A stretch of DNA of 64,000 nucleotides from Sphagnum compactum (taxonomy: Eukaryota). Within the stretch, counting starts at the first letter, position 1. The number at the start of each line of letters is the position of its first letter. The translations under genes were made by a program, and so were the position numbers. Under the pieces are notes generated by a model. That model was not told the DNA's origin and did not search any database. It saw only the letters and a program-made list of their open reading frames with translations. Shown here piece by piece: positions 4,301 to 64,000 of the stretch. The stretch covers positions 36,570,213-36,634,212 of the forward strand of contig OZ234493.1 in NCBI GenBank assembly GCA_965153455.1. Direction: 5' to 3'.

Positions 4301-4943
4301 TAATGTGTAACTGGGAATGACAATTTTACAGAACAAAATAATTGGGACTCAAACTAGGTTTTCCACCAATTTTGGTGGTAAACTGAGTTTCATCCCCTCT
4401 TTCCTTAGTCCTGAGCGCCTTCAGGGCTGCTACATATATTTTCACTACTTCTACCTCTACAACTACTATAATTAGTCGAACCTTGTGCATTAAATGCTGA
4501 GTTTCAACATTTCATACTAAGATTTAGTGAAATTTCATTACTTTGCAGATACCACTGAGAGAGAGAGAGAGGGGATAGGGGGTGAAAGCAGGCCCAAAGA
4601 CAGGGCGACTTTATGGATAAATCTAATGGCCTTGGTTGTTACAATGCATAAGTCCCTTAGTGTGGGACTTCCCCAAAATTCAAACCCAACCTTGGTACTC
4701 CTCTTGCAGCAGGCCCTCCTTTTGGGAATGTCCCCCACTCGTAGGACCTCATGGTACACTTATTATTACTGAAGAGGAGGAGAGGTTCAATGTAGACAGA
4801 AAAAGATGAAGCAAGTGTGGTGATGCCAAGGATACGGCCAGACTGAACCAGCACCCACCAGTGCATCATGCAGGATGGATGGATGGATGATATGTGGACA
4901 GGAAACACTCTTTTTGTTGTATTCTTTGTCCTGTATGTAATTA

Positions 4944-6835: not shown

Positions 6836-7412
6836 AAGCCCTAAAGAGAGTTCTGAAACTCTTGAAGAAAGCTCAATGTAATGTAAGTGTCATAAACCCC
6901 AAAAGGAGTTCTGAAGCTCTTGAAGAAAGCTCAATGTAATGTAAGTGTCATAAACCCCAAAAGGAGTTCTGAAGCTCTTGAAGAAAGCTCAATGTAATGT
7001 AAGTGTCATAAACCCTAAAAGGAGTTCTCAAGTTCCGGAAGATCTCAATGTAACGCGTAAGAGCCCAAAACCCTATAAAGAGTTCTCATGTTCCGGAAGA
7101 AGCTCAATTTAACACTTAAGAGCCCAAAACCCTAAAGAGAGTTCTCAAGTTCCGGAAGAACTCAATGTAACGCGTAAGAGCCCAAAACCCTAAAAAGAGT
7201 TCTCATGTTCCGGAAGAAGCTCAATGTAACACGCAAGAGCCCAAAACCCTAAAAAGAGTTCTCAAGTTCTGGATGAAGCTCAATGTACTGCAGAAGCCCT
7301 AAACCCTCAAATGAGTTCTCAAGTTCTGGAAGAAGCCTGATGCAATGCAGAAGCTCTGAGCCTCAAAAAGAGTTCCTAAACCCTAAATGTGTTCTGCAAG
7401 AAGCTCAATGTA
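6836..7412. repeat. Tandem array of ~58-bp units (~10 copies), each with a telomere-like AAACCC(T/C)AAA motif
   Basis: The unit gagttct..aag..c..gaagaa(a)gctcaatgtaa...aaaccc(t)aaaa repeats with ~58-bp period, visible as a 2-nt register shift per 60-nt line. Confidence 0.9.
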
Positions 7413-8526
7413 ATGCAGCACAATAGGTGAATGCTTCATTTTCGTTTCATTTTCCAACCTGCCAGCAAATCATGCTGGACATATGGGCCACAGACTGAAA
7501 ATCAGAAAAGATGAGGATCATAAATCATTCTGGAGTTGTGGCTGGCAGTGAGCTTTATCTCTTCTTTTCATGTAGATGTCAGGTTGTTGAGTCTCCTTAT
7601 CACAGAATCTACAGCAATGGATTGCCCTGCTTGAGGAGGTACTTAGTACTTACATTCTTAAGCATATGTAAGTAGATGTTGCACCATCTCTCATGAAGAG
7701 TTCACATGAAAACTGTCAAGATTAAACATAGCATTATGCCCGTTTGTTTGCTGTCCTCTGTCTTTGCAATCATAATGCCTTAAGGTGAATGCAGTGAACA
7801 ATGAGTATCTTCAGAGTGATTGGTGATACATAGCGGACAACAGAAATTCAGAACATGGGAATGGACATGTGATTAAACATATATATTTAGTGGCATATCC
7901 ATTTCCAAGTTGTGAATTATATATATGTGCTACTGACATTACAAGAATGACCAAAAAACTGAATTCAAGGGAAAGAGATGAGATCCAGATATTCACTCAT
8001 GCCGTGGAGAACAACAAAATTGCACTTCTCAAAGGAAATGTGAGCTCATGAGAATACATAACACACATATATAAATCCTTCATTACTTTGAGAAATAGTT
8101 TCTCCCATCAGTCACAAGCACTATGAATTTGAAAAAACTAGTACAGGTCTTCAACAAACCACACAATCCAAATCCGATTTTGTGCAATATTTTTTCTTTT
8201 GGTTCATCAGAAGAACTATCAACATGAGGCCACAAGTGCAGGGCAACAAACCGACAATCCAACTATACAATTGATTACACTGCACATACAACCTATCCTT
8301 GCAATTTCACTGTCCAAAAATTGACTGCCATGGAGTCAAAGGAGCCTGACTCATGTCAATGGCAACTATTTATAACCCCAAAAAATCCTGGCTCTCTACA
8401 CCAGCGAACGTTACTCAAGAAACTGTCATGTCATACCTCACCTCAAGAGGTATACCTACATCTTTACAAACAACAAGCTCCTCCTCTACAAAGGATTCCA
8501 CTCACTATTTGTTTTTTCAAGGTTTT

Positions 8527-9995
8527 TCAGTACTCAGAAGCAATATGTTTCATGTAATAAGGGTTTGTAACAGGCAGTTTTGAGAATGAAACCTGTGTCT
8601 GATAGACAGGTCGATGAGAGTAGTGAGAGGAATACACAGGCTCTCCTCCATAAGGTGATCCATATTGTGTGTCCATGGAAATGTACTCAGCATCATGGTA
8701 TCGATGTCTGTTGAATGATGGCATGCGGCGCACTCCATAAAAATCTCTCTGTGAATCTCGATTTCCATCTCCATAATAATCATTCCTACGCTCAACATCA
8801 TCACCTCTGCGCATGAAGTCCCGTCGCAGCGGTTCGCGGAGTGTTGAGTTGCCAAATGAAGGAAGCCTTCCCAATTCTCGACCAAAAGAATTGGAGCGGA
8901 TTAAGCCAGCACCAGAGCTTCCACCCCGCCCATAATCTTGACTGGGGTTGTAGGTGGGTGGACGATGGGGATGAGTTCCAATGCTGCTGTTGATGATGTA
9001 ACTACCTGAAGAAATCAGCTCACACTTCCCATCCACTTTGGCTTTCTTCACTTGCTTGAGAGCTTGAAGGGGATCCACAAACCCTATGATAGTCACTCTC
9101 TGATTATACCTGTCACAGATTACGCTGCGCACACCATTCAGCTCCTCCAGCTCTTCTTTCACTTTCTCCTCACATTTATCACAGCACATCGGAACCTTCA
9201 GCTCAAGAGCCGGCACAGTGCCATTCTGAGGAGTAACAGGAGGGTACTGGTTTGTATAACCACCAGAACTAATAGAAGAAGACATGTACATTGGTTCCTC
9301 CTTCCCGTGAAACATCTGCAGCAGCAACAGAAGAGAAAAAACAAACAAACAATGCATACACAACCAACCCCAGGTTACGACTTTTTGTAATACTTGTGAC
9401 TGCTAACTACAATAACTCCTCCTGCAGCCTGGCTGAGGAGTGTTGCACAAGATCAAGACAGATTCTCTGCAAGACTTTAAGAGCATCTCTAGCGGTGCTC
9501 AGTATGTGACCCTGCAAAAATATTTCTCAGATCCAAGTTTTAGTTAGTTACTTTTTTTACCAACTCCGCCCATAAAACTGAAACTCGGACTGCAAATAGG
9601 TGGAAGACTACTAAGAGCAAACCACCTGGACCAAACAAACTAATCAGAAACAATAAGCAGTCAATAAAAACGATTTGAGTGTGTTTATTGCACTGTTTCA
9701 GAGCTCCTCGAGGGGTCTGAAAGATGTGGACTTTTTCAGGATCACAGCAGTCGTCTTCCAGTGGATCCACTGGAAGACGACTGCTGTACCGCATCCAAGA
9801 TTTCCAGTGCAGGGTCACATACTGAGCGCCGGTGGTGGCGATGCTCTAAAGGAAAAAATCAAAACTACTCAAGGAAACTGGGATCATGTATGCATGGATG
9901 GATGGATGGATTGCATTATCATTCCAAGTTCCTGATTAGAAGAAGCTCAAGGGACATGATCATTTCCTACTCACCTCTCGTATCCAGCTGGTCAT
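8527..9995 (-). CDS. HMA-domain protein (HPP-like, no CaaX); exons 9995-9975 and 9315-8527
   Basis: A short exon MTSWIRE with a GTGAGT donor at 9974 joins in phase 0 to the CAG|ATG acceptor at 9315. HMA domain: LELKVPMCCDKCEEKVKEEL...GVRSVICDRYNQRVTIIGFVDP. The C-terminal tail is R/G/S/Y-rich. Confidence 0.85.
9744..9787. repeat. Perfect 44-bp palindrome without spacer, in the intron of the HMA gene
   Basis: ACAGCAGTCGTCTTCCAGTGGA|TCCACTGGAAGACGACTGCTGT, centred on GGATCC. Confidence 0.95.
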
Positions 9996-11228
9996 GGTGA
10001 AGTCCGCGAGTTCCCTTGTGCAGCTTCCAAACTTCGAGAAAGAACCAACAAACGAAAGAAGGAAAGAACGAACTTCTCGCTACAAACAAAGCAGAACTGC
10101 AGCTCCTCTCCGAAAACAAAAAGTCCCAAAAACAAAACAAATGTAAACAAGAAGAGAAGCCGTAGGTTGTAATTATCTCCTATCTCCTACCCCTTGGAAC
10201 ATAAACGAAACTGAAGAGAGAGAGATATATATATATAAAAACAAAACAAAAGCAGCCGGTACAACCAAGATAAACGAAGCCAACTCCTCCGGTTTTGTAT
10301 CCCAACAAGAGAAAAGAAAGAGGAAGAAACAAAGGAACAATTATTAGCACACTGTTGTTCTTGTGTAGCGAGTACTGTAGTTGTTAACTGCAATGTTGGT
10401 GCTAATCCTTGCAAGAAATAAGAAGGAAGAAGGTGGTGGTGTTGGTGGTGGGGCGGAGCTATGGCAAGCACGATGGTGACGAGGAGTGGGGGAAACTACC
10501 GAAGCGTGCGGAAAACACGGGGCAACTACAGCCGCCGACAACAACAGTTGCCGCAGACTGCGGGATACGGCGCGCCGGACACGAAGACTGCGCGCGGGAA
10601 ACGGCGCGCCCGACAGAAAGACCAAGTCCAAATTTTCGCTTTTTTTTTTTCCCCTTTTTGGCTAATTTGTTTTTCATAAAAAACACGCTCAAGCAGGGTT
10701 TTTGTTTTCATATTCCTCAAGTACGTCCACTGGCGAGGATCCCCAGAATTAATTATTAATTAGATGGCGACTTTCGTACGTGTGCTGTAGCATTTTTTCA
10801 CAGAAGTGCTGCTACAAGTGCCGACCTGGGAAGTGCCTTTATGTCTAGATATGATTAATTTAATTATTTTATTCCTAAAAATGGCTAAGAAAAAACCCTA
10901 AAATCAGAATAATTTCTCTTTTTTTAAGAAAAAAATTCTCAAACGAAATTCGGCAAGTTGCGAAATTACGGCATCATTAAAATTTTAAAAACATTGTCGT
11001 AAATCATTGGATTTCTTTTTTTTAAATTTTGTTTTCTTTTTCTTTTTCTTTTTAGCAGTTTTGTGGTTTAGAAATTTATGCGAATTTTTTCCCCCAAAAA
11101 TCGAATTTACAATTTTAAAATATCCCATTTTTCCCAATTTTCTTTGTCATCACAGTGCAAAAAGTCACCAGATGCGAAAAGAAAAAATCGTCGTTTTTCC
11201 GTTGTATTTGAAAGCACCACCCTCACAC

Positions 11229-11531
11229 CAGTGTTTTTCTTTTTCTTTCCAAATTTGCGATGTTTACTCAAATGATGATCATTAATACTTATATTTAGCC
11301 AAATTTGGCAATATTCAAAATCTAAAAATAAAATATCTAAGCACACTTTCATAATTGCAGGTAAATTGTGATGATTTTGTTAATAAAATAAAAAAAACTC
11401 ATTGTTTGGTTGTTTTCTCCCACAAGAAACAGGGAATTTGTGAAAGAATATTTCTTTTTTCAAAGAGCTTTTTTCCCCCCACAAAATGACGAAAATTCGC
11501 CACAAATTTTTTTTAATAAATGAAATCACTG
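11229..11531. mobile_element. hAT-type MITE (~300 bp)
   Basis: CAGTG...CACTG termini with 8-bp flanks cctcacac / ctccacac (6/8 match, a degenerate TSD). Shares a gccaaat(c/t)tgg core with sequences at ~3.1 kb and ~16.7 kb. Confidence 0.55.
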
Positions 11532-14500
11532 CTCCACACGAAAGATCCTTTAATAAAATTATATAATTAATTGATTAATTAATTAATCCTTCCTTTTAAT
11601 CAATTGAAATGGAAGAGATGTTTTGTCAATTGAAAAGAACCTTACACATGTGGAAGGTGCTTTTGCCACATGTCATGGTGAGGTGGATTGAAATGTTGTA
11701 TTACCATAAGCCGGAGCCAATGTTGAATATTGAAAAATGGGTATTCCAAATTAAGATAATTTATATGGTGATGATGATTTTTCATATGCATACATCGCTA
11801 TACATCAATAATTTGGTTGAAAACAAAAAATGCATAAATATGCTTCTATGGACAAGTTATCATTTTTTTTTTCACTATTATTTCCTACACATATGACTTG
11901 CACTTGAGGCTACAAATTTGAGGCCCAATAAATACAAACAATCAACAAAATGGTCAAACATATCGTCGTTATCTTTGTAACCTTTTGGAATTTGAAATTT
12001 TGTAACCATCAAAATACATGTATGTTTTATAATTTCATCAAATGCATCCAAGAACATTGTTAACATAGATGTAAACCTTGTTCATTCATTAAAAAATAAA
12101 ATGGAAGCTAATTGTGTTAATTAATGAGTTCGTTTTGGTTTCTTTTAAGAAAATTTGTAAATTGGACAACTAATATAGTTATTTTGAAAGACTCAAAAGG
12201 AAAATTATATAGTATTATATATAATTAATCTTAGATATGTTTATTTATTTAACATGACATCATTCTTCTATAATTATATTTTAAAAATCACTATGATTAT
12301 AATGAGATAAATGATATAGACACCCAAAATTGGACTATGTAATCCTTTTTTCATTTGATAGTCGTTATGAATAAACCCAATTGAATTATGTAGCTACAAT
12401 AAACCTTGGTGTAACCAATTTTTTTATTATATCATAAGATGACCAAAATTCAATCATAACCAAAATGCCAATTAATGAAATTCAATCACATTTAATCATT
12501 ATTCAATGGAAAATCACTTTGAAAGTGGGTGGAATTAATTTTTGTTGACAATTCAATAATCCCTATCAAATCCAATCACTATCCCAATGGTCCTAATCAT
12601 GTTTAACCATGAATTCAACAATTTTAATCAAATTCAACCACAAATCAAATAGTTATACTCAAGTTTAGTTGTAAATTTGACTATATATTGTGGTTAAATT
12701 TGGTTATAAATATGAGGGTTTTGATTGAATTTTGTTGCAAAATATGTAATCCTTATCAAAATAGTCACCAAAAATATTCAAAAAAAGGAAGAGCAAGTGT
12801 GTCCCAAAAATGATTTAAATTCAACCATAATTTGAATGATCACAATCAAATTTGATAATGATTGAACCATGTGAATAAAGACTACCTATCTATCAACTTG
12901 ATAATCAAAATCAAATTTGATTGTGAATTCCAATATCTTGATCAAATTTGGTTGTGTCATGATTGGATTTGATCAAGACGATTAAATGTGGCACTACATT
13001 TGATCATGACCATTCATTCAATTATCTTGATGGAATTTGACCCCAAAAAAACCGAAAAGTGGGACATCACTTTTGCAACTAAAGTAAAGTCATGAATATA
13101 ACATTCACCATGGAATTTGGTTCCTATTTCCACGTCCCCAATCCAATTTAATAAAAAAATCAATGGTCCCAATCGAATTTAATCTCGAAATCAATAGTCT
13201 TGATAAAATTTGTTCATATGATTAATGATCTAGATAAAATTTAGTTACAAATTTTATGATCTTGATTGAATTTGGTCATGAAGTCAAGAGTTTAGATCAA
13301 ATTTTGTTAGAAATTCAATGGTTGTAATGAAATCTTACCATAGATTCTTCTTTAGTTTTGTAACAATCTAAGTGAGAAAATGGATGAGTAAAATCATGGA
13401 AATTGTGGTCATGAGGGACTTTGTAAATACTCTAAAATTACAACAATAGCAAGTAACACCAAAGTACAAGAAAACTTATGAACCAAATGTCAAGAATGAA
13501 ATAAAATCTAATCATTTTGAAGGTATGCATCAAGAGAAGCAAGGACCACGCTCCTTGATGAAACATCTTGATCAAAGAAATAAGAAAGAAGTGTACAAAA
13601 ACTTGTCAAATCCAACACAAATCCATGCCAAAGTTAAACCATTATCAATAATAACATGTGAGATCAAACCCGTACTCCTACACATGCTTGAAGACCTTTT
13701 GAGAATTGACACAACCAAGGCAAAATAAAAAGTAAAAAATACTAAAGGAGGGGAGATGCAATTGACACTTTTTCCTCATTCAAGACCATCGTTGTCTCCT
13801 CCATACGCTGTATTGCACCACCTCATAATTGATTGGGTTCTCAAGATTATGGAGGTTTTTAAGTACTTTGCACTTGTTGGTATTCAAGAAACCACAAAAG
13901 CCCAAGCAAGGATGAACAAGAAGGTGAAAGGCTTTGTCTTTACATGGAATTCCAAGGACTTGTCCTCCAACAAATAAGGATATGTGAACCATATAAACTC
14001 AAGCAAGGTTTATTCCATGCATAAGTGGTAAGACTAATCATTTGAATGGTTGTCAACTTGGACAAAGGAGTGATGCATTTAATAATGAACATTATGGATG
14101 AATTGTTCATACAATTGGTAAAGATAAGATCATCATACTAGAACGGTCTTTCTACTCGAAGGAGTGATTCTAGAGGATTGGTCTATACCAATGCACACCA
14201 CAAGTCTTTCATTGAAAAATGTGATTCAACGCAGTTTTGAAGAGTTTACCTTCCTTGATGGGCACTTGTCGTGTAGTAGCATTTTACTTGCTGCTGCATC
14301 TAATTTGTTTCAGTTGTTTTATAGCCCAGTAGGATTTACATGTTTAGGCTGTTGTGCCAGCAATTAACTGATGAACATAATCAGAAGCGTCTGAACAGTG
14401 GTGTGGAGCTAAATTATTATTCCAATCTCACTGCAATAGTTGGTGCTGGAGAAATGCAGTTTTGCTTCTTTGGAGACCATCAAGCATGACTTATCTTGAA

Positions 14501-22797: not shown

Positions 22798-23232
22798 TCT
22801 CGGCCGAAACCCCGCCACGTTAGCGTCAACGGTAGCCAGTAGCGCAGCATCTACCACGAATATAATAATCCCCAACACGAAAAACCCATTCTCCTAATTT
22901 ATTTATTTTCCTTTTTGGGTGGTTTGTTGCTGTGTTTCTTCGCTTGTATTTTTCCCTTCTGTCTCTCATTGTTTATCTCATTACCCGATTGCATTTTTTT
23001 CGTTTGTTCTTTTCCTCCCATCTGCTTGTGAGATTGTCGCTCTAGCAAGTGCAATTTTGCCCTTGCTTTTTCTCTGTCCAATGTTTCGCCTCGTTCTTGT
23101 TTTCTCTTCTTCTCTGTTTCTAGGTCTGGCGATCAGGCCTGGAATTGATAGCGTTGTGTGTTTGGTTTAGGGCTCGAGTGTAACCATCAGAACAACAAGG
23201 ACTAGACGAACAAGAACGAGTATAAGACAAGA

Positions 23233-26200
23233 ATGGCGACGATTCAAGTAATGCTGGGAAGTAATGTAGTGCTATTTGACTTGAAAAGAAGATTTGAAGT
23301 AATCGCGAAGAAGAGTAATGTTGGTAAAATTGTTGGGGGACATAAATTGGTGAATCCTCTGCAGAGACCCGGTGTGGTGGTGATCAAGCGAAGTAGGAAA
23401 GCTAGTAGTATTGATGTAGTTTGTGCCGTAGCTACTACTACTCCCAGTGCGGAGCCCAGTATGGTGGATACTTGGGAAACTACGGTGTCGCAGCCCGATA
23501 CTTTTTCGCAGTACTCTGGATACATTGCAGACGCGGCAGTGGAGGAAGCGGATGCTTTGAATGCGTACAATGCTGATAAGTTTGCAACTATATTTAGGAA
23601 GAGGCCGTTTCTGTTGGCTCGAAGACTTGCTCAGATTGCTGGAACCCTTGGCGGATGGGCTGCTCTGCGCTCTTTCGACTCGCTCATGGGACGATCAGAC
23701 ACAAATTTCAAGGTGTGATTTTTTCCCAGTCGCTTGAAATTTTCAATTCCCAGAGTCAATTTTGGTCTCATAATGCAAACCACAAGCACATGAAACTTTT
23801 TTAAGATTCCCTGTGGGACCATCACGAAGAACTTGAATTTCCCCTATGCAACCATCAAATGGGTTGTTTGACAATGGGTAAATACAATGATCCCTCTGTT
23901 TCACACTGGGAAAATTAGAATAAAACATTGAAATATTGCTCCCATGATTCCTTTGGAGAGCTTTGCCTATGTTTTGTTTATTCGACTTTAATTTGTCAGA
24001 GGTTCCCACCCTTTTCCCAACAGGGAATGCCAAAAAAGTTTCTTGTGAAGATGCCACTGCTGCAATGATGCTGACCGCAAGCAGAAATTGAGACCAGTTG
24101 GAGTTTACATGATGCTAAACAGTTCATTTCCTGTCTCCTGGGCTACAAATTCACATGTTATCTAAAGTCTGTGCCATCTAGTTTCATAGAGAGCTTGATG
24201 TTTGTGGATTTTGAATAGTAAAAATGTCAGCAGTGGAGAGGTGTAATGGTTATTTGGAGTTCCACGGAGCTTAACATTGTCCCATAACTACCACTCAGGA
24301 TTGCATTTCACCATTTGTGACACAATCCTCTTGCATATGAGAGCTGTGTATCTGTGCCGACAGAAGATTGCTCATATTCAGGGAGCTGCAAACATAGATT
24401 AGTTAGTTGGAGTTCCAATGACTGAAGCTTTACATTTTCTGGTGGGTTTATTATCAGAAAAGAGCAGGACAATTACGAGCTGCTCTTGTTCAACTTGGCC
24501 CTGTGAGTGTTTGTCCCAATCCTTTGTGCCAGAATCATGCTTCTGTTTGACAGTATCCTTAAGTCAGTAGAATTGGAGGGTCATTTGCCAGTCAGAGGGT
24601 GGAAGCAATGAGTTTCATTGACTTGGAAAACACAGCATCTATAAGAAGTGTGTGAACTTCAAGGACAACGCATCTAATGTGCCAACTAAACCCTATTCAA
24701 TAGGATGTTAGAGTCACTTTCAAGGAGTATTCCTGACATAGGTGGAATAACAGTAGCAAATTCTTTTGTCCCACATAATACCCAATAGTAGGATTTCCTA
24801 CTATGTTCTTTCTTAATTGTTGTGCAATCTTCAGTGTTGTTGTGGAGATTTTCTGCTATGTCCGTGACCTGTGTGATGTGGGAATATGTGTACAGGCTTT
24901 TGTGAAAATTGCGCAAGCAGTCTCATCCCGTCCAGTATGAGATTTCACTGATCACCCTTGTGCATGCCTTATTCATTCCATCTCATCTTGTTTTCAGTTT
25001 TGTAACTATAGATCAAGGAATCAGAGACTGCAAGCCTTCTTCCTCTTTTTTTGAGGGGTCTAATTATCCTATGTTAGAGTTATGTAGGTGGCCAGGGGAG
25101 ATTTGGTTCTGGTTTATGTTGTGATGCAACCTTACTAAGTATTAGCTGCACCTCTTATTGCTGAAGTGGCACCATGTAGCAGTGTAAAGTATTGGTCAGT
25201 GGTTCAACACACTTTTGTTAATGGTCAATACCTGATTTGCAGACACTGGTTATTGATTTTCATGTGTCAGGATGTAATTGCTCCAGAATATCTGGCAGAG
25301 CTTGAATTGTTACAGGACCGGATTGCACCTTTCTCAACAGAGTTGGCCCTTAACATTATTGAACAAGAGTTGGGTGTACCTGTTGAACGTCTGTTTTCTG
25401 AAATATCACCACAACCTGTGGCTGCAGCTTCCCTTGGCCAGGTGCAGTTTTAATCTGAAGCTGTGGCAATTGTATGTCTCCTTTTGTTGTAGAGTTCCAT
25501 TCTGTTCCATTGTAACCAATTGATCATGGGCTGTGGCACCGGTATTCCATAACTGGAATAGTCAGACAATTGGAATGTACTTTGCTTGATAACTCTGGCC
25601 GATGGGCCAGTGCTGCACTGAAATGATTTTGATGTCTGTGAGGTTTCTATCAGGTATATCAGGCTCGACTAAGACCAAGTGGTGAAGCAGTTGCTGTGAA
25701 AGTGCAGAGGCCTGGGGTCCGTGCTGCAATGGCACTAGACCTTTTCATATTGAGAAAAATGGTGGACTATGCAGGAGCTTTGCTCAGACTCAATACTGAC
25801 CTTGCAGTTACATATCGTTCTCAAAACTGAAATAATTCCCTTGTTCTCTTGTTATTGATGTTGCAGGCTCTGGACCAGTGTAGTGTGCTCTGCTTTTGTA
25901 GATAAAATAGAACTGGTGCCCTGCTTGTTATAGATAGAACCTACAGTCGTAAAACCTTATTTTCTGTCAAGGAGATCCATGCTTTCCGGAACCCATTGGA
26001 TTGCCAGTATCAATTCCATTCAAAACATTTCTATCATGGTGGTAGTCTAAGATCAGTCTAACAAACAGCACAGGTGGATGATGATGATCTGTCAGAAGTA
26101 ATTAAGTGAGTGTATTGAAACACAATACAGATTTGTATTCCTCATTTACCTCACAAGCAAATAGATTGGTTGTGACATAGCTATCTGTGCTGAAATGAAG

Positions 26201-29200
26201 ACTTGCTGTATTTTCGCAGGGTGTTGTAGACGAATGGGGATCGAGTGTCTTTCGGGTATGTCATGGTTGCCATCCTACTGATTTGTCTGATTGAGTTGCT
26301 CCCACAGTTTCAGATGCAAGTACGGTGTTTTATGTTCCCACTTCAAAATCAGAAAATCCTTTGAGCGACTCAAGTCCCATTGTTATCAACCTTGTATAGG
26401 AGTTGAGAAATCAACTCATTACTTCAGGTGTGTTATGGTGATGCAGGAAATGGACTACCAAGCAGAGGCCCGCAATGGTGTGCGATTTAGGTTCCTCCTC
26501 ATGAAACCTCACTCACCATACTAGTACACCACTTCCCCTGGAGAGTGTTTTCTTTACACTGCCCTTGCTTTTGGCATGGGTATGGCTTTCAGTATTTTGT
26601 GGTCAAGGTATGGATCCTCTACCTGGAAAGTTTGGTGCTACCAAGGAGTTTCCACTTTGTAGGTGAATGTTCCAATGAGGGTCCTAGGTAAGGGGTGTTG
26701 GAAGTGAAGATGGATAGTAGTAATGAGAAGAAGATGGGGGTGGGTCAGGAAGATGTTTGGGAAAGTACCAGATGTGTTTATACCGGAGATGTTTACGGAG
26801 CTCACAAGCCGACGTGTTCTTGTCATGCAATGGGTCGAGGTGTCTCCCTCTCTTACAATGTCTTTCTCATTAGCATTCTCTGTCAGGATTCCTGCTTGAA
26901 ATTTGTGCTTCTAGGGCTGAGACCTTTTTCCTCTTCCTGCAAGATGATATGCCAGAATTTTTTGGGATGTGCAGGGACAACGACTTTCAGAGGTCAATGA
27001 TCTCCGCCTTGTTGAGGTATAAGTTGGAAACACAAATGCTAACCAGGCATGATCCTCAAAAGAAATAGGCATGTTTGCAACAATCAGACTCCACATTCTA
27101 TTAAGTTGGAATTTTGATTTTCTAAATGTGCAGACCTACAGTTTCTGTAGTTTCTGATGACACAATCATCATATCCACCTATATATTAATTTGAGCATTT
27201 GCTGGATAGGTCAAAAGCAGTTAAATGGAAATATTATTTGCAAGATTTCTAGAGCAACTGCTTTGCTGTAGAAGGATTTGAACTGAAAATCTGGTTCTTT
27301 TATGAAGCTTCAGTTCAGGCTGTGCTTTTCCATGTCAATTTGCAAGTATCATGCTAGGCAATGCTCACTTATTAGTATTCTGACTCGATGGGTTGTGTTT
27401 TCTGAGAAATTTCAGGTGGGTGTGAATTGCTCTCTGACACAATTATTAGACAGCGGATTTTACCATGCTGATCCTCATCCTGGAAATTTGATGCGCACTC
27501 CTGATGGAAAATTAGCATATCTAGGTACATTCCAGGTTTCATCATCAGTGAGATATACTGAAGGAGAGCTTTGTATGCTCCCTGAGTTTTCTGTGCCAGA
27601 TCTTATCAGTTGCAGGTCTAATGGAATAGTTGTGCATAGGAATGTAAAGAGCATGGATTGTAGTGTAATTTCTATTGGTGTCTGCATGTGAATACAGACT
27701 TTGGAATGATGGGTGAAATGAAGGAAAATTTGAGGGATGGCTTGATTGAGGCCTCATTACATCTTGTCAATCGTGAATTTGATGAACTTGCAAGTGACTT
27801 CGTCACTCTAGGGTATTTGTCTCCTGTAATCACTTTTCTCAGTCTTTGTCATTATCCTTTTCAGTTCTTGCTGTCTGTTTCTATTTGCCCTTCCAGATTG
27901 ATTGCTGTTTTAGTTCAGTGCAGAATATGGCCCAGATTCTAATTGATGCACTGTATCGTTGTGCACTGTTGTGGACAGGCTTCTTCCACCTACAGCTGAA
28001 ATGGGGGCTTTGTCACAGGCTCTCACAGGTACTCTGCCTCATTTCTACATTTATTGCAATGTTGATTTGTACTTGATGAAGGTCATGGTCTCGTACGTTG
28101 TGTGTGATACTCACAAGGTTATGCTCTTGTTCTTGTCATGTTTGTTTCACCTTTGGCCAGAACTGACACAATTATTACCTTCAAAGTGTTATTGTGTAGT
28201 TTTCTCTGCAATCTCATTGATATGTTCTCCAGCAGATGTACTGAATCCAAGCACTCACAAATTGGTGTGTGTAAAGCACATGCTCAGGGTGCAGAGGCCC
28301 CAACCACCACTACCCTCTATTTAGGTCTCCTATGGGCCTTAGGTATCTAGGGCAAGCTGAATTGAAATGAAGCTTACTGTTACTGTTTTCTTGCAGCTTG
28401 AATGAGGATATTTTTTGTTAGCTATGCCCCTAAAATGCTAGTTAACATCATCACTCAGTCTTCACATTGCTTCTGGAAATGCAACAGAAGCTTAGGATAC
28501 AGATTTTGTATACTTGTTTGCCCAAGACTTTGATCAGATCTTTGTATACTTATCTACACCCATTGTTGGGGGTTGATGAAGTCAATGGGGAGTAACGGCA
28601 ACCATTCACAACTGTTCATGATGAAATTGATGGTCTGATACTTTGTACGTGACACTCAGAAGGTTATGACCACATTCATTCTTGTTGTGTTTGTTTCAGT
28701 TTGCCTGAAACAGGCATAATAGTTACCTTCAAAGTGTTGTTCTGGAGTTTTCTCTGTAATCTCACAGCTGTGTTGATTTGTCATTGTCTGTTTGTGGTCA
28801 TGGACCCAATTGACTGTGTCTGACCAAGGCAAAATGCAAGTACATTAAGACGTCAGTCAATCTGATGTGAATACCACGCATGGAAATCAATGAACATATC
28901 AATGGGAAATGATTCATGTTTATATTTGAAGGCTGGTCTGCTGTTTGGACTGACCAAGTTTTGTCAGTACGCCAGATGAATGGAGATCAACAAATGGCAT
29001 GTGAATGTTTCTATGGAAAACTTATGTTCAGTTGGGTATTGTGTGTTGTGCAGGGGTGTTTCAGGAGGCTATAAGCAAGGGTGTGCGGAATATTAGCTTT
29101 GGTGACCTCTCAGGGAAATTAGGCGTTACCATGTACATCTCTTCAAATATCAACTACAAATTTTTCTTTTATGTGTTGAAAACAGGCGTAATGGCAAGTG

Positions 29201-47254: not shown

Positions 47255-49799
47255 CTGAAAATCATCACCTACAACAACAGCTCTAACTTCTGATCCTCTC
47301 GCACAGCATCTCACAAGCAGCAAAAGACACACTGCATGCAAAACAGTTGCCAAGTACTCTTCATAGCGCATGTGCACTTCCAGTATCCTGCATGCTAGTT
47401 CCTTGCTACAACTGATGTAAGATAAAAACCATCCCCTCAAAAAGCCTAAGAAGCAGGCAAGATCCCTGTCCTCCACAGGACATATTCGCACCTCACACGA
47501 TAATTTCCACTAAATCCTCAGTAACTGACAAGACAATAATCTCTGTACCACGATGTGTTAAGCTTGCAAATGCAGTTCCATAGGAGTCACAAGCATGAGA
47601 AAAAAACTGTCCCAAGAGTAGTGGTCACACCCTCACTGACTTCACTTAACAATTTTTAAGGATTGTCTTCACCAGAAGAAAAAAAACAGCACATGGGAAA
47701 TCTACTCCTAATCCTTTGATAGTTGCCCACGTGATGACTTTCACCAAGACATCGTTTTGGAACCTAAGAAGACAAAGATAAACCAGGGAGAAAATCTAAA
47801 CAGTAAACAAAACAAAGCATAATCAACGATGCAGTGGGGGGGTGGGGGGTGAAAGAAAAAATCAACCAAAATTAAAGGATAGAAAACACACACCTTGTGT
47901 CCGCACCATGGTGACAAACACTGCAAAAGCTCCGAGATGGTTGGTTCCAAATTTCAGTGTTTCAAGCTGGAAACCCTCGTTCCTCTCTGCACATGAATAA
48001 CTTTCGGAATTGCCCGACAAAAATCAATGACAACCCAGAGAATTTTCCCGAATAACTCTCAATTCCAAATCGACAGCTCGCTCGGAACGGGAGACGAATC
48101 GGACCCCCGATCCAACAACACCACCCCCTGACAAGCTACAGTTGGGGATTTGCAGCTGAACCAAAAACCACAAACTTCAGCTTCCATCGCAGGATCCCTT
48201 AACCGAGATGCGCACAGAAACCCTCAACAGTGGATCTCTCGTAGGATACTTACTTCCTAGGGGGCAAAGCTTGTAGGCAGTACCTGCGTCTGCCATGTGG
48301 CGTTTCTTGGGCCTCCAGGTGTTGGATTTAGTCATAGATCTCCACTAACCAGCAGCCAGCTGTCATGTGGCCGCCTTTGGATAGATAGTCACTAACTCCA
48401 ATCAACCAGAGCGCAAATTTTTCAGGGGAAGGGGGGGAATGGGTCAGGAAAGCAAAAGAATGGGTCGGCTTCTGTTCATGTGTCCTCATTTGGTTGGTTT
48501 TCTTGGTGCCTATCCGTCTACTTATTAGTTCAAAGAACAGGGGTATGGAGAGGGTCGTCTGGGTGATTTTGAAAGGAAGGGTGCTGGTGGTTTTGTGACA
48601 GCAATTCAGTGGCAAACCCTCCTTCTCCAGCTCAACCTAATTGTTGCCATTTTTGTAAAGGACTGAAGAGGGTGTTTCCTACTAAAGAATGCTCCTGAAA
48701 AAGGCCCTGACTTTAGAGTGACTTTGGAGTGAAAGAGAAAAGGGGCTCATTAGTCTTTTGTTGTTATACAAAGGATTGGGTTTGTGTTTATCTGTTTGCA
48801 ATTGATTGGCAGTCAAACTTCTCTTCTTCTTTTTTTGGCCTTTTAAGTTTTGAATGCCAATTTCAGCAGAAGGATTTTGAACCTAGTGACCGGGGGGAAA
48901 AGACTACGCTTTTGAAATTTGACATAGTTTCACAAAAGCTCGTGGATTATTTGCTATGTGTCCTTTCTCTTAAATTTTCAATTAATATTAAACTTTCACA
49001 ATTCAAAATTTAAAAACTATTTGGGGTTAGATTTGTGGAATGGGTCAATGACACCCTGCAGATAACATTTGTGTCACCATTATACACCCCATGCTTCTTT
49101 CATGCAAGCATCACTAAAAAAAGAACAAAGGGATGTGTCACACTGTGGCCTTGCCATTTACATTAAAAAGTATCTTAAGGCAAAAGAAGAATTATGAAAA
49201 CTCAAATATTTCACCATGCAAAAATATAACCTTCAAAAGAATCCTCTAAAAGAAACCAAAATCCTTCAAGATCTTATAACTCTATAATTAATCTCAAGTT
49301 TCAACACAAGCCAAAATATCATCTTTCAAAAATCCTCCTATAAAAATAGACTTATTACCTAGGGGCCAAAATCCCTTAAGCTACTATACACCATAATGAA
49401 TATAAACACAATATCCTTGCCTTGATAGGCAAGGCCAACAACCATATTGTAATGATTCATTTGGATTGCAGTGACTTCCAGCAACACAAAGTTGGAGGGC
49501 AAACAAGGGACATCAGTCGGATGTTAAACACCCCCTACAAACTTTGTGGCATCCACAAGGTTGGACTAGTGGCAACAAAAGAAAAGTTTTTTTTTGTTTA
49601 GCATCCTCCAAGCCATTTGATCTTATTCTCCATGTGTTTAAAACCATGAAATTCCAATTATGAATTCTATACCCAACATGCAATCAAAGAAGAGGTCTTT
49701 TCAGCACAACCTTGTAAAGCTTTATTTATAAAACACACACACACCGCATACTTTAAAAGGCATCAAGTTAGTATAAATTAGATGTCAAAAATTCTCCAT

Positions 49800-52700
49800 C
49801 TCAATAACCAATGGCTTGTAGTAAATCAACCGTAACAATGGGGGTTGTGTCTTGAAGGGGTGGAAGTTGGGAAGTAGTTAGGCCTATTGCTATTGCCCGA
49901 CTTTAGATGGAGGATGCTTCATCCTTTGTAACGTAATTGAAATTCTTTGACAAAAAAAAGTAACCAAGACTGAAAGGGGAGGGCATTTTGGCTTTTTTAG
50001 GCTCCAAATAGCATTAGCACATTTGTGTAAGAACACATTGACATGTTTGTATAAACATTCAAATATTTCAATTGCTAAAGGGAGGAATTGATCGGTCACA
50101 AGGTGTTGGTTGCAATACCCTCGAAAGTAGAGGGGCGTGCTAAAGCTGCAAGATGGGGACTTGGAAAAGTGACAAGTGAGTCAATTATTTACACAGACCT
50201 GTACAAACCAAATAACAAGTTGGTCAATGTGAGGTTGGAGCACTTTCGGTGCTTGGACGAACTACGGGCATCCATGGACTCACAAGACTCACCATGGTTC
50301 GAACTTGGGGGAAACCACCACCTTCCCCCTTATAGTATTCTTTGTGCATGGTCACGAGGGCTACACCCAAATGTCATTTTGTCTTAGGACTCCCGAATCG
50401 AGAATCCCAAAATTCCTAAAATTGGGACTCCCACAACTTTGGGGGCCCATAACTTTTTGTGTAAACTTTCGATTGAGGTGAAGTCTAAAATAAAGTTGTA
50501 GCCCTTGTTGAAATCTTTCCAACGATATGTGGCATGTGGTGCCTACACGTAAGTAAATTAGAACCATTCCCAACTTTTAATGGTCGAAAGTCAAATTAGC
50601 ATTTTGATTCCCATCCTTTCTTTCGGCCATAACTTATATTTTAGACACTCAAATGGGACATGTGAGCTCATTTTAGACATTTAATTTTCAAGAATTTTTC
50701 AATGGTATAAAAAACTTTTCAATCTAATGTTTTGACCCCTGCAATCGCTCTCTGAAGATTCAGGAGTCCATTAGGACTCCAAATCCCAAAGTGGGAGCCC
50801 ACTTGGGAATGTGTGGGTTCATTCCCTCACACTTTCCTACACTCCTGGGAACATGAATGTGACTCCCACGCTTCATTCTCAACCCACACCTTTGCAAGCC
50901 CTTGCTTTGGTCACAAGCCCAAGGTTAAGGTTGCAATAATCTTGCATAATGATGGCAAAGGTGTTGTGAATTGCATCATGGGTCCCCGTGTGTTCGTTAC
51001 CATGGGTGCAACGTAAAAGGTGGATATCCATAAGGTCAATGGAATGGGTGCACACACATCGGGGGAGGCCTACAATTGAAGGATGTGGTAGTCCAAGTCG
51101 CATTTGAAGCGCTATGAAAAAAAATGGGGAAAATAATCAAAGGGCTGGGAAAATTAGTTGAACTATAAGCCAAGCGCATGCCCCAAGGCTGAAACATGAT
51201 AAAATTTGGGCACGATGGGCTTCAAATATCTCATTAGAAAACATGTTAAGAAGGGTATGATGGTGTAAACGCTTTGAAATGGAATCTTGAAGATGAACCA
51301 TTTATTGTTCAATGAGTTATTCCAAAAAAAGAGGACACATCATGTTGGGGGCAATAAAAAAATACATGTTGCTTTGAGGTGTTGTTGGAAAGGGAAGGTG
51401 TTGTTGTTGACTCACACTAAAGCAAGAAGGAAGGGACGTTGGTTGACCATGAACTTAGTTGTTATGATTGAAATTACAAAGGCCCAACTTTTAAAATAAG
51501 CTGTTAGGGCAATGGTGGATGTCAATATGAGGCCAACGCTACTTAAAGTTATTGGGAAAAAAACTTCTTTATGGGTTAAAGGCCTTCAAGGCTATTAAAA
51601 GACCTCGGACCCAAGAGGCATCCAAACATTTGAAGAAGGAAGGAGTCAAAGGAAACAAAGGAATCTATGAAGGTGGGAAAAGGTGATGTGCAACGTAAAA
51701 TATACAATGGTTGTTGCACATAACAATGAGTTAGAATTTTAAAGGCTACGTAGACATCGTCCAATTTAAGGAGAATGTCAACATGTTGAACATCTTTTAA
51801 TGAAGTAACTTTGATGAAGGATGGTTTGAATGATGAGGTGTTTGATGGAACCCTAAAAACTTTAATGCCTTTTGATGGTGTGTTAACTAGGATGAAGTGT
51901 CAAAGTTAAAGGGCAAGCTAAGGGACCATGCTACACATTTTTATAGGTTGGCTAAAAAGACCTATTCCATGAAGTTCAATCTGAAAATGCTCATATGCAA
52001 AGGATATAATGGAAGGGGGGGGGGCCAATGAAGTGAATGTTATTTGCAATGGATGGAAATAGAGAAGAGGGGAAATGGTTAACTATAGAATGTAATGCCC
52101 CAAGGTGAGCTAAGGTAAATAATGCCCCTAGCAAATGATCACCTTGATGAGTTCCCATGGCAAATGGGATGATTATGACATCACCATCACGATTATGGTG
52201 ATTGTAAAACAAGGGAGATTCAAATGCATAAAATGCACAAACAAAGGGGATAAGTTGTATGATGTCCCCACCTACTTTACAAAGTTCCTAAAATATGACC
52301 CTTTTTAACACCAAATGGAAGGAATTCACATTGTCTAGCTAAAAAACAACCCAGTCAGGATGAAGGTGCAAGGTGCATATAATGCCATGGATTACTATTT
52401 CATATCCACCTTTAGTTATTTCAAATTGGTGTGGGGAAAAATTTATTGCAAAGGTGTCGCAAAATTGAAGGCATAAAAGCATGGCTTCTGAATTGATATA
52501 ACGTTTCCCTTATTATAAGGGGACAAACTCCACCTAAAGGTTTGGTCATGGCTAAGAGGTGGGATGCCCCAAGGATATGTGCAATTTGACATGGAATGTG
52601 ACCTTGTGTGATATGAGAGCAAAATTGAAACAATTGTGAGAAGTTAATCATGGAATCTTTTGGGTGAAAGCAGTCTTGGAGGTGTTCAAAAACTATTCCA

Positions 52701-61020: not shown

Positions 61021-61034
61021 TTAAAATCTAGTTT

Positions 61035-61930
61035 CTAGTTGTTCATAAATCCTGTAGTAATTACATAGTCCGATGAAGCTCCTTAAAGTGTGAACATCAG
61101 TTTGATTGGGCATCTCCAAAATGGCTAATATTTTGACCCAATGAGCCATAATACCATTTGGCAAAATTCTGTGGCCAAGGTAGACTACTGAAGTGACAGC
61201 AAACTCACACTTTTTAGGATGGATCTTCATATTGACTTCGTGGAGCTTCTTGAATAACTTCTTAAGATGAGTCAAGTGCTGCAGAAGTCCCTTGCTATGC
61301 ATTAGGACGTCATCTATGTAGCACTTCAAGAAATTTGCCCCTTCGAGAACCTGGTTCATGACTCGTTGAAAGAAGACGTGCATTTTTCAATCCAAAAGGC
61401 ATCACAAGCCATTCCCCCAACTTGTTGCTTCCATGGAATGCCATTTTCTTGTGATCCTTCTTTGCGAACACAATCTGGTTGAAATTTTGCCTTAGATCCA
61501 CAATTGTGAAGATGTTTGAGTCTCCAATGCTATTAAACAATTCTTCAGGGATGGGCATGGGGTACCTATCCTGAGGTGTAACTAGGTTCAAAGGCCTATA
61601 ATCCCCGCACATCCTTTTTTCAGTCCATAATCCAGTTGAATCCTTCTTTGCTGGCATTACTGTAGCGCCTACGAAATCAGAACTTAATGGCTAAATGAGA
61701 TCAGCCTCATGGAGCTTTTTGCATCTTTCATCTACCAGTTCCCACTCATGTTTGCCCAACCTATGCCTCCTCTGATAGATGGGTGCCTCATCTGTAAGGT
61801 CTATAGAGAATTGCATGGTCTTACACCTACCTAAGTCTTTCATTAAGAATGCGAACACATTCTCATATTTAATTAACAAGTCCGTGACCTGGTTTCTCTC
61901 CTTCTTGGTGAGTTGGTTCCCCATAACAAA
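61035..61930 (-). mobile_element. Ty3/gypsy reverse transcriptase (frameshifted, truncated before RNase H and integrase)
   Basis: IDLTDEAPIYQRRHRL..E, EKRMCGDYRPLNLVTPQDRYPMP, VDLRQNFNQI, WLVMPFGLKNA, CYIDDVLMHS, KIHPKKCEF...YLGH, LRSFIGLCNYYR. Confidence 0.93.
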
Positions 61931-62229
61931 AGGGTAGTTCGAAACACATGGAATGGGATTGGAAAGTGTGTTTGAAGAACCTGGTGTATTGGGATCTCCA
62001 CTATCCAACCGCGCAGATTTGTAGAAGGTTGTAATTGTTTATCCAGAAATTGATGTACCTCTAGGTGTATTAGAAAGAACTTGAATCAAGTTACATGGTA
62101 CCTCCTCCCCCCAACACTAAAAGTGAAGTGTAGAGTGTTGAAGATAGGCAAGTGTACTTGGTCGTGGTGACATGTAGTCGCATCGCCAGAATTGCAAGCT
62201 GATTGAATCAATGCTAGTGTTGTGTACAT

Positions 62230-63205
62230 TTGAAAAAGTACACAGGTTACCAACAACCATGTAAGGGAGTTCAAGTCCATGCCTCTCCCCAGTAGAGCGT
62301 TACGCTCCAATCTAGTCACCTTAATGTGACTAGTAGTGCCAATTTGGAACCCCATAGCCCTTTCTCTTTCTTCTGGGCTTGGTTCATCCCAAGCGGTTCA
62401 AGCATGACGATACACTATGCCTGGTCCATCTTCCTAAAAGGCGTGTGTTCCTAGGAAGGAGACAAATGTGGGCCAAGCATTTATTGGTTTTCCTATTGTG
62501 TTAATAGGAAACCAAGGAGGTTTCTTTTGTGTTGTAATTGGTTGGCAGGAGCTTTGATCATCCAATATGTGAGAAACTTACAGGTTGGGGTCTCTGATGG
62601 TGTATCTCAAAGCCAACTGCAGAACTGAGAATGGTGCAAAGTTGGTCCACCAGTTGCGCAGCTAGTGCGCATAGGAACCACATTGTGCCGCATCAAGTAG
62701 GAGCGGCTCTCCAAGGTAATGCTTGACTAGCATGTAGTGTTCCTGGACTTTCTGCCTCTCGTCAAGCTGATAAGGGGTGTTCTCAATTACATAACCAAGT
62801 GTAGGAGAAATGGATTGAGCCTAGATGATCAATCAAACCATGTCCATGAAGAGACCGGATCTTGTATCACTCAAGCCTTTTCTGCTAAAACCCTAAATCC
62901 AACTGCTGAAAATCCTTGACACTCTCAACTTGAAATGATGAGGTCCACGGGGCCAAGTAATTCCATATGCTTCTTCTGAATTAGTTGTAGGTTAGAAGGC
63001 AAGAAAGTGAAACTGGCCTTCCATGCGGTGGTTGCAAACTATTGTAGAAATCTGGATGTGAGCTCCATCATTCTTGATGCCGCCATTTGCCTTACAATAG
63101 GATCAATGTCTACATAGAAATACCTCCGAACCACCATCCTTGACTGTAGTAGGGCTTCGAGACCTGTACCGATACCACCAAAAAGTTCAAGTAATATAAT
63201 CCCCT
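62230..63205 (-). pseudogene. DNMT3-like C5-cytosine DNA methyltransferase domain within a gypsy polyprotein (in-frame stops, one frameshift near 62880-62895)
   Basis: Manual translation gives motif I ILLELFGGIGTGLEAL (LELFGGIGTG at 63191-63162), YFYVDID, motif IV GPVDLIISS*ECQGFS (Cys 62921-62919), KGLSDTRSGLF, motif VI YVIENT (EN 62784-62779), motif VIII EPLLLDAAQCGSYAH*LRNWWTN (~62710-62641) and motifs IX-X EERERAMGFQIGTT..VTRLERNALLGRGMD. Confidence 0.85.
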
Positions 63206-63411
63206 CCTTAGGCAGTGTCTAAGTGATTAGTTGACGAAATACTGGCTTAATTGGTTCGCCATGGCTCTCCATGTTTTCAAAACTAAACAGAGTTTTAACC
63301 ACGGGCTTATGGGCTGCTTCGAATCTCTATAAAACCTCTGGTCCATGTTGAATGTCAATAGGAACCACCCTCAAGCTTTCAGTAGCTTGGGTGTAAGTTG
63401 TTTCCTTTTTT

Positions 63412-63530
63412 AAGCACCCACAAGCTCCTTAATAGACTCAAATGTGAGTCTAAACTGAAAACAGCAGAAGAGCAAAGAGTCGAGGCACGCTCCCTGGCTT
63501 GCAACTCTTTGGGGGGGTAGAGGGCTGTGA
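63412..63530 (-). mobile_element. 3' fragment of an LTR related to 3484-4300, abutting the 5' end of the DNMT-containing frame
   Basis: Minus-strand ccctctacccc...gggagcgtgcc.cga.tc...ggagcttgtgggtgc matches the 3' end of the solo LTR (ccctctacccct...gggagcgtgccccgagtc...ggacttgggagcgc). Confidence 0.6.
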
Positions 63531-64000
63531 GCCATGGATTATAATACCACAAATTGTTAAGCTTTAGTTCCATATTTTTCCTTAGTATTAATGATTTGAA
63601 TCCTGATAAACCTCCAAATAATAATCATTAGGAGTTGGATTAGCCTTTGGATATTTCAGCGTAGAAGACTTTTTTGTTTAAATTGATGCAAGGTTTAGTT
63701 AGTTTTAGGACCTAGTAAACCTTTTTAAGGGCATTATCCTTTTATGTTGTAGAGAAAATAAAAGGGATGTAGAATTAGATGTGATTTATTAATATATTTG
63801 GAATACAAGCCCATAACTAACAATAGCATTTCGCCATGACAATATTAAGTTAGCTTGTAAAATAATCTTCAGGCACGAATGATGTACTGGAAAGATTTCT
63901 AAGATGTATTCCTAATACATCTTTATTTAGTTTTCACTTCTATCAGACGCTTAGATAAAATCAAAATCAAACTTAAGTATTAACATTTCCACCTGAGTGG

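Follow-up and report, generated by a model that had tools for sequence, protein, structure and literature searches.

Methyltransferase-Carrying Retrotransposons

To our knowledge, retrotransposons that carry the very enzyme with which hosts silence them are rare, and those that encode a cytosine DNA methyltransferase (DNMT) bear on how mobile elements manipulate chromatin. The subject of this analysis is a 64,000-nucleotide stretch of the moss Sphagnum compactum (assembly GCA_965153455.1, contig OZ234493.1, positions 36,570,213 to 36,634,212; hereafter the window), whose minus strand was proposed, from the letters alone and before any database search (the sequence-only reading), to hold a Ty3/Gypsy retrotransposon with a DNMT3-like C5-cytosine methyltransferase upstream of its reverse transcriptase (RT).

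The only plant-lineage case found in print is that of the alga Klebsormidium. KnitGypsy-Dnmt3 of K. nitens is described as a Dnmt3-related, intronless and non-permuted domain inside the Gypsy Pol open reading frame (ORF), with a ratio of nonsynonymous to synonymous substitution (Ka/Ks) below 0.2 and with repeats that the legend of Fig. 4c calls 'the same as that of a DIRS retrotransposon', a layout defined as A-coding-B-A-B (PMC5890265). The authors of that paper (de Mendoza et al. 2018, PMC5890265) interpret the domain as having been acquired 'in the K. nitens lineage', and their yeast experiments show de novo CG methylation by the DIRS domains of dinoflagellates. EpiLTRs, as described in a recent preprint, are likewise long terminal repeat (LTR) elements with a cytosine methyltransferase and a chromatin reader, and differ from the elements treated here in that their DNMT is sister to DNMT4 and lies at the 3′ end of pol, accompanied by a DAM domain and a chromodomain (bioRxiv 10.64898/2026.05.21.726589).

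Methylase-encoding transposons have been stated not to be present in land plants 'such as tracheophytes' (PMC6338049), and the text available of the discovering group's recent work refers only to 'streptophytes (Gypsy-DNMT3)' (bioRxiv 10.64898/2026.05.21.726589). No description of a DNMT3-carrying Gypsy element from a bryophyte or other land plant was found in the literature searched; bryophyte copies may already be included in the DNMT trees that supplement PMC5890265 and PMC12344493. The kind of element is already known from Klebsormidium, and its presence in land plants is new as far as the literature found extends.

The Fragment in the Window

Positions 61039-63410 (minus strand) very probably represent a dead internal piece, cut off at both ends, of a Ty3/Gypsy element that carried a DNMT3-like C5-methyltransferase between protease and RT, and that belongs to the same lineage as KnitGypsy-Dnmt3. 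A near-intact relative, locus L066 from metagenome contigs, encodes a Pol that matches the window in four collinear pieces of 79-88% amino acid identity running from 63410 to 61039 (tblastn), which leaves the originally proposed span of 61035-63410 nearly exact. In the read-through Pol of L066 the match covers residues 522-1309, and what the window retains is 2.4 kb from the interior of an element of about 9.3 kb, with 89.5% nucleotide identity to L066 over 2352 aligned positions.

Read along the minus strand, the fragment opens with the spacer between protease and DNMT (63222-63410, Pol residues 522-585) and continues with the DNMT domain (62227-63218), a linker and pre-RT region of Pol (61628-62226), the RT core (61165-61627, with YIDD at 61309-61320) and the last RT residues before the 3′ truncation point (61039-61164), where the tblastn match ends at Pol residue 1309. 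The RT, recognized by the sequence-only reading as Ty3/Gypsy with YIDD on the same strand as the DNMT, is borne out by RVT_1 matches (Pfam) on two ORF pieces, 61310-61690 (E-value 2e-6) and 61021-61386 (E-value 1e-13). The linker had been put at 300-400 nucleotides and is longer than that, with about 600 nucleotides from motif X to the start of RVT_1; it is conserved among copies, with a pattern of nonsynonymous relative to synonymous substitution like that of the enzymatic domains. The spacer ends in a TAG at 63222, just before the DNMT, that is common to L066 (9917-9919 of that locus) and that is replaced by a Trp codon in the related proteins P0005 and P0008; this stop reflects either a defect inherited within a subfamily or a TGG>TAG change that has arisen more than once.

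Within the DNMT, six C5-methyltransferase motifs had been listed on the minus strand in canonical order, and three-frame translation, with read-through as X at stops, recovers all of them. They comprise LELFGGIGTG (motif I, 63162-63191), DLIISS*ECQGFS (motif IV, 62907-62945, with the catalytic Cys codon at 62919-62921) and, just downstream of it, GLSDTRSGLF, followed by YVIENT (the ENT of motif VI, 62776-62793), AH*LRNWWTN (the H*LRN of motif VIII, 62641-62670), ERERAMGF (62347-62370) and RNALLGRGMD (motif X, 62275-62304), so that motifs I, IV, VI, VIII, IX and X stand in unpermuted order.

The read-through translation of the window (P0001) finds six proteins, the best of which, P0003 (E-value 4e-144, 81% identity), combines PF00145, RVT_1 and two RT-RNase H families in one protein. 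Another, P0006, joins a CCHC Gag, an aspartic protease and a methyltransferase, and P0007 is a gene model of Sphagnum magellanicum. PF00145 scores above its cut-off of 22 bits on five of these six close relatives, which are 77-81% identical to the window, with 36.5 bits for P0003. Named proteins from farther afield also match the window by tblastn, including P0214 of Marchantia (E-value 1e-53) and P0149 of Klebsormidium (E-value 5e-37), and the nearest cluster in the protein atlas is a Streptophyta C5-methylase cluster.

Aligned to L066, the window copy contains 12 in-register stops and three frame-shifting indels, and it does nothing as a protein. The DNMT has no open frame, with eight of the stops and one frameshift inside the domain, and lies in two frames as a result of an 11-bp insertion at about 62884-62894. 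One further stop (62041) and a 1-bp deletion near 62113 fall in the linker, and a 2-bp deletion near 61378 splits the frame of the RT core; together these two deletions break up the RT. Transitions account for 206 of the 248 substitutions, and in the direction from L066 to the window G>A and C>T changes number 125, as against 81 for the reverse, in what is a pairwise comparison with L066 and not a polarized count. Such an excess would fit the decay of a methylated, silenced insertion. Elsewhere in the 64-kb window, tblastn with the L066 Pol and self-comparison revealed no gag, protease, RNase H, integrase, PHD finger or terminal repeats of the element, and self-comparison by blastn and tblastx revealed no second copy.

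A Multicopy Family in Moss DNA

Metagenome contigs scanned with P0003 yielded at least 600 pattern-matched stretches, at least 586 of which tblastn confirmed; the 80 best of these served as loci for the analysis. Copies of the family abound in Sphagnum-like moss DNA. With L066 as the yardstick and a domain counted when at least half of it is covered on the plus strand, RT is present in 78 of the 80 loci, DNMT in 75, RNase H in 66, protease in 62, integrase and Gag in 52 each, and the PHD finger in 44. DNMT and RT occur together on one strand in 73 of the 80, a linkage figure that is biased upward because the query used to choose the loci spans DNMT, RT and RNase H. The expectation that the DNMT would prove multicopy and tied to RT is thereby borne out, and the two outcomes that had been named in advance as fatal to it, namely the lack of any significant C5-methyltransferase match and a single-copy domain never linked to RT, were both looked for and neither was found, the significant match being that of the intact relatives.

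The best copy, L066, has a gag frame at 7239-8291 followed by a single frame at 8165-14179 that is broken by four stops and that encodes, in order, protease, DNMT, RT, RNase H, the zinc-binding and catalytic domains of the integrase, and a C-terminal PHD finger. DNMT and RT share one uninterrupted frame of 847 codons. Membership in Ty3/Gypsy is evident in the window from the RT with its YIDD, and the full order of protease, RT, RNase H and integrase is seen only in the relatives.

Sixty-eight alignable copies fall into 61 groups at 98.5% identity or more, with a median pairwise identity of 86.5%. Several metagenome records contain the same insertion (L016/L046/L072, L013/L017, L014/L033, L027/L028, L052/L053, L076/L079 and L067/L068), as judged by at least 98.5% identity or by identical flanks, so that the 80 loci are not 80 independent copies. 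Only five of the 80 have any plus-strand ORF of 400 amino acids or more, and no fully intact copy was seen among them; together with the median identity, this scarcity of long ORFs marks the family as sampled as old and mostly dead.

Terminal Repeats and Integration

The moss elements are bounded not by simple LTRs but by repeats arranged as A...B-A-B, in which a 292-bp repeat A lies about 1.4-2 kb before gag and B-A-B, in which each B measures about 185 bp, stands downstream of the coding region. The complete layout is seen in L066 (5558-14882), and B-A-B in 21 other loci (e.g., L002, L017 and L060): probing with the repeats of L066 revealed the 3′ B-A-B in 22 of the 80 loci, in 13 of them together with the 5′ A, and in no locus was a plus-strand B found next to the 5′ A. 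The element unit starts with TGTCATG and ends with CACGACA, giving TGTC...GACA ends of the TG...CA type. The four bases flanking each of the 12 full copies are identical on both sides in six, agree at three of four positions in another four, at two of four in one and at none in one, against a chance expectation of 1 in 256 for an exact match. These flanks indicate that the whole A...B-A-B unit was inserted with a 4-bp target duplication, which fits a DDE integrase and not a tyrosine recombinase. Integrase_H2C2 and rve domains are present in the moss elements, and no tyrosine recombinase ORF was seen in L066 between 5400 and 15000.

The dinoflagellate SymbioDIRS-Dnmt3 elements resemble the moss family in having a DNMT3-like domain in Pol and A-coding-B-A-B repeats, but they are DIRS elements with a tyrosine recombinase, whereas integration in the moss family relies on a DDE integrase (rve) and leaves 4-bp target duplications; the features that define DIRS-like elements, a tyrosine recombinase and the lack of a target duplication, are not those of the moss elements. 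Other details of the repeats include a G-run (GGTCTGGGGGGGG) directly before the first B in all eight loci inspected, a palindrome-like junction between the first B and the second A (GACA-NN-TGTC), and a TATA box inside repeat A. Nothing recognizable as a primer-binding site follows repeat A.

Type of the Methyltransferase and Selection on It

The assignment of the domain to the DNMT3 type, first made from its motifs, holds in both profile and fold searches. A profile of 22 family members placed DNMT3A first among PDB entries (E-value 1e-23), followed by DNMT3C and DNMT3B (1e-19), whereas DRM (9e-15) was matched over its permuted half only (profile positions 92-227) and M.HhaI stood at 5e-10. 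An AlphaFold model of the uninterrupted DNMT of L066, which was used instead of the broken window copy and was built with 36 aligned sequences, reached a mean predicted local distance difference test score (pLDDT) of 96 and a predicted template modeling score (pTM) of 0.93. The top 50 Foldseek matches listed for this model are all DNMT3A, 3B or 3C, with a best E-value of 8e-20 and template modeling (TM) scores of up to 0.85 on the target, and the predicted fold of the domain matches DNMT3A/B/C. The circular permutation of DRM is lacking, as had been noted, since the motif order is unpermuted and alignments to DNMT3A are collinear.

Compared with the cellular DNMT3A and 3B of animals and with plant DNMT3 and DRM, the moss domain has the fold and motif order of DNMT3. 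It has neither PWWP nor ADD, forms part of a retroelement polyprotein and carries Glu-Cys in place of Pro-Cys in motif IV; the stretch from motif VIII to motif IX exceeds that of the cellular enzymes in length (327 amino acids, as against about 283); and, unlike DRM, the domain is not permuted.

Selection was gauged from the ratio of nonsynonymous to synonymous substitution (dN/dS) in pairwise Nei-Gojobori comparisons among copies, with gap and stop codons dropped and with pairs that are not independent of one another. From the closest to the most distant pairs this ratio falls from 0.69 to 0.27 in the DNMT, from 0.78 to 0.24 in RT and from 0.79 to 0.25 in the integrase, so that dN/dS declines as dS grows in all three alike. 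A DNMT that follows the same course as RT and integrase was kept by selection as firmly as these essential enzymes while the family diversified; the comparison of copies shows purifying selection on the DNMT in the past that is equal to that on RT and integrase, with neutral decay after insertion.

Relatives in Liverworts and Green Algae

A HMMER search with P0005 against 1.84 billion representative sequences returned 1892 proteins at an E-value of 0.001 or lower, 733 at 1e-10 and 247 at 1e-30. Among the best 150 matches, the majority show 33-40% identity along the full domain and form part of proteins that are 1000-3400 residues long. When 358 collected proteins were scored with the domains of L066, 348 had matches. 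The DNMT follows RT/RNase H or precedes the integrase in 156 of these, including 77 with the complete order RT-RNase H-DNMT-integrase-PHD, and follows the protease or precedes RT in 49; a further 141 contain the DNMT only, one contains integrase and PHD only, and one (P0007) is a chimeric gene model. The protease-DNMT order occurs in every named streptophyte (Sphagnum magellanicum, S. troendelagicum, Marchantia polymorpha, Calypogeia fissa, Closterium and Klebsormidium), and the RNase H-DNMT-integrase order in every named chlorophyte (Monoraphidium, Haematococcus, Chlamydomonas eustigma and Cymbomonas).

The 110 DNMT domains placed in a quick maximum-likelihood tree comprise a random choice of 28 from 133 long class-I rows, the full set of 37 class-II rows, 14 of the 47 DNMT-only rows, 16 named rows, the ORF of L066 and, as outgroup, 14 weaker PF00145 proteins. 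All 96 retroelement DNMTs form one clade relative to the 14 other DNMTs (support of 100 in the Shimodaira-Hasegawa-like approximate likelihood ratio test, SH-aLRT), the chlorophyte-type rows form a clade (97), and the majority of the streptophyte-type rows come together less firmly (89). The family of the window stands on its own long branch, a second lineage from Sphagnum is placed with the liverworts (99), and one change of architecture suffices for the whole tree. Across P0010-P0158 the residue before the catalytic Cys is Pro or Glu, with a few cases of Cys, Asp or Ser, and at least seven switches between Pro and Glu are required on the tree, though each amounts to two base changes.

The green-algal Gypsy elements, represented by gene models of Monoraphidium, Haematococcus, Chlamydomonas eustigma and Cymbomonas together with many environmental proteins, share with the moss elements the same DNMT family (33-40% identity), the same integrase and the C-terminal PHD finger, but have the DNMT between RNase H and integrase and form a clade of their own. 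No paper was found that describes these RT-RNase H-DNMT-integrase-PHD elements as such.

The link to the Klebsormidium retroelement DNMT, to which the sequence-only reading had pointed, was examined through P0149, which is GAQ93235.1 of K. nitens, a partial protein that reads CCHC Gag, protease and DNMT and ends after the DNMT. Its DNMT aligns with that of L066 over the whole domain, an alignment of 326 amino acids that spans motifs I to X with 33% identity and six gap positions (E-value 9e-51). The moss family and KnitGypsy-Dnmt3 have in common a non-permuted DNMT3-like domain in a Gypsy-type Pol, a DNMT homologous over its full length and placed after the protease (as seen in GAQ93235.1), repeats whose A-coding-B-A-B arrangement matches the published layout, and signs of purifying selection (in the published Ka/Ks and in the dN/dS given here). 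They differ in host, a charophyte alga as opposed to a land plant, in that the DNMTs are only 33% identical, and in motif IV, which has Pro-Cys in K. nitens and Glu-Cys in the moss. The discussion in PMC5890265 also puts the Klebsormidium copies at a lower number, and the main text of that paper makes no mention of a PHD finger.

Several public gene models are pieces of these retroelements that are annotated as hypothetical or methyltransferase proteins, including P0007 of S. magellanicum (CY35_15G039600), P0214, P0239, P0244, P0247 and P0285 of Marchantia, and P0269 and P0279 of Calypogeia fissa. A protein labeled 'DNA cytosine methyltransferase [Candidatus Obscuribacterales bacterium]' (P0270), from a metagenome-assembled genome, matches the retroelement DNMT profile at an E-value of 7e-120 and is probably eukaryotic DNA that was binned into a bacterial genome.

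Weighing the Interpretation

The placement of the window fragment in a DNMT-bearing Gypsy lineage shared with Klebsormidium has several points that weigh against it, in addition to the upward bias of the linkage count. Of the two family models that were to be recovered from the span, RVT_1 was found on the window itself, but PF00145 was found only on intact relatives: neither the window pieces nor their X read-through gave a match to it in Pfam (0 families), and the only PDB matches of the read-through, by phmmer, are DNMT3A chains with a nonsignificant E-value of 1.6. The DNMT of the window is too decayed for a family model to recognize it on its own sequence, and the case therefore rests on its relatives. 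The scarcity of long ORFs among the 80 loci leaves a live family in this genome as no more than a possibility. GAQ93235.1 is presumed to be one of the published KnitGypsy-Dnmt3 copies, and the DNMT tree includes no verified host plant DNMT3. Two further points, the replaced Pro in motif IV and a negative result in yeast, concern the activity of the enzyme.

Both of these favor the view that the DNMT of the moss family is a pseudo-enzyme, which would have the fold and bind DNA or S-adenosylmethionine (SAM) without methylating, and would have been kept for a targeting or decoy role. The residue before the catalytic Cys is Glu and not Pro in the window and its close relatives, and Glu occupies this position in at least 39 of the 96 retroelement DNMTs, whereas Pro occupies it in all 13 outgroup sequences with a readable motif. 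The Gypsy domain of Klebsormidium gave no methylation in yeast, a result that its authors called inconclusive as human DNMT3B was also negative (PMC5890265). Against this view, the catalytic Cys, the Gln that follows it, the Glu of ENV and the Gly and Gln of motif IV are invariant in the 36 aligned sequences, the arginines of RxR and the glycines of motif I are at least 90% conserved or dominant, and selection on the DNMT has been as strong as that on RT. A pseudo-enzyme is accordingly held to be unlikely, and catalysis in the moss family is predicted from sequence and structural model, with the Glu-Cys of motif IV counting against it.

It is less probable still that the moss family captured a host DNMT3 independently, by convergence, and that it and the Klebsormidium element do not go back to one DNMT-bearing Gypsy lineage. 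In favor of independent capture are the published interpretation of the Klebsormidium case as a lineage-specific acquisition (PMC5890265) and the position of the Klebsormidium pair, which lies in a polytomy at the base and has no sister relation to the moss family, on a tree that includes no verified host plant DNMT3. However, the DNMT follows the protease in both (the Klebsormidium protein being partial), the repeats of the moss elements have the published layout, a PHD finger accompanies the integrase in both architecture classes, and all retroelement DNMTs fall in one clade whose architectures require a single change. On these grounds a shared lineage, recognizable by the protease-DNMT order, the A-coding-B-A-B layout and a homologous DNMT, remains the strongly favored reading. 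The sequence-only reading left it undecided whether a land-plant lineage had kept or regained such elements; 'kept' fits better, because a single domain order is common to the named streptophyte copies, which, apart from the basally placed Klebsormidium copy, fall in one weakly supported group (SH-aLRT 89) on the DNMT tree.

A domesticated methyltransferase gene, derived from the element and now serving the host, would account for annotations that list element pieces as genes (S. magellanicum CY35_15G039600 and Marchantia Mp_4g09160), but the window copy is riddled with stops and frameshifts and the Sphagnum model strings together the protease, DNMT, integrase and PHD pieces of an element, skipping RT and RNase H, so that this explanation is very improbable. 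Chance neighboring of a processed host DNMT3 copy and an unrelated Gypsy fragment, suggested by two parts that are both broken and lie in different frames in the window, is of negligible probability and is ruled out by the open 847-codon frame of L066, by the tblastn match of the window to that frame without a break in collinearity, and by the collinear DNMT-linker-RT order in the 73 linked loci.

Other Features of the Window

Directly outside the element, at its 5′ truncation point, lies an unrelated repeat (63411-63865, no strand assigned) with blastn matches in 12 of the 80 loci, some of which sit inside other copies of the element. Two other repeats of the window, at 3480-4628 and 49797-51368, have 52 and 47 matches, respectively, in the flanks of the 80 metagenome loci, and the genome of the window and the plant host of the metagenomes therefore share repeat families. 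The remainder of the window, as far as its ORF pieces show, we take to consist of ordinary intron-bearing plant genes (427-1026 and, on the same plus strand, 23206-23718 and 27287-27691; 8527-9402 on the minus strand), which presumably include two heavy-metal-associated-domain proteins with Lys/Glu-rich tails and one ABC1-type kinase. Among the sequencing runs listed, 20 contain part of the stretch, with a best share of 0.36 of the sampled words; one of them is named 'moss metagenome', and no RNA run is among them.

Proposed Function, History and Significance

In live copies the DNMT would most likely have been made as part of Pol and would have methylated DNA, whether the cDNA or insertions of the element itself or nearby chromatin. 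The PHD finger may have read histone tails and thereby steered integration or methylation, a role that has been proposed for the PHD and chromo domains of other retroelements (PMC6673714, PMC8557442).

A fuller history that joins these elements is offered tentatively, as a possibility that is on balance doubted. It would begin with one capture of a DNMT3 by a PHD-bearing Gypsy lineage before the split of green algae and streptophytes, followed by one move within Pol between the site flanked by RNase H and integrase and the site flanked by protease and RT, in either direction, and by persistence of the lineage into mosses and liverworts. Reverse transcription would make the repeat unit B-A, and the DDE integrase would then act on a circular form and cut it open where B meets A in a palindromic junction, yielding A-coding-B-A-B with 4-bp duplications; the catalytic loop would work with Glu in place of the canonical Pro. 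If true, this history would overturn the reading 'acquired in the Klebsormidium lineage' as well as the view 'absent from land plants'.

Elements of the kind known in plants from one alga occur here in hundreds of copies in moss DNA, and two liverworts, a desmid and several green algae supply named relatives, which suggests that the capture is much older than thought. The public gene models concerned (CY35_15G039600, Mp_4g09160 and others) are flagged as pieces of elements and not host methyltransferases, and for bryophyte model organisms such as Marchantia and Sphagnum the elements offer a handle on what such a methyltransferase does. The copy in the window is ordinary debris, yet it points to a large, old and under-described family.

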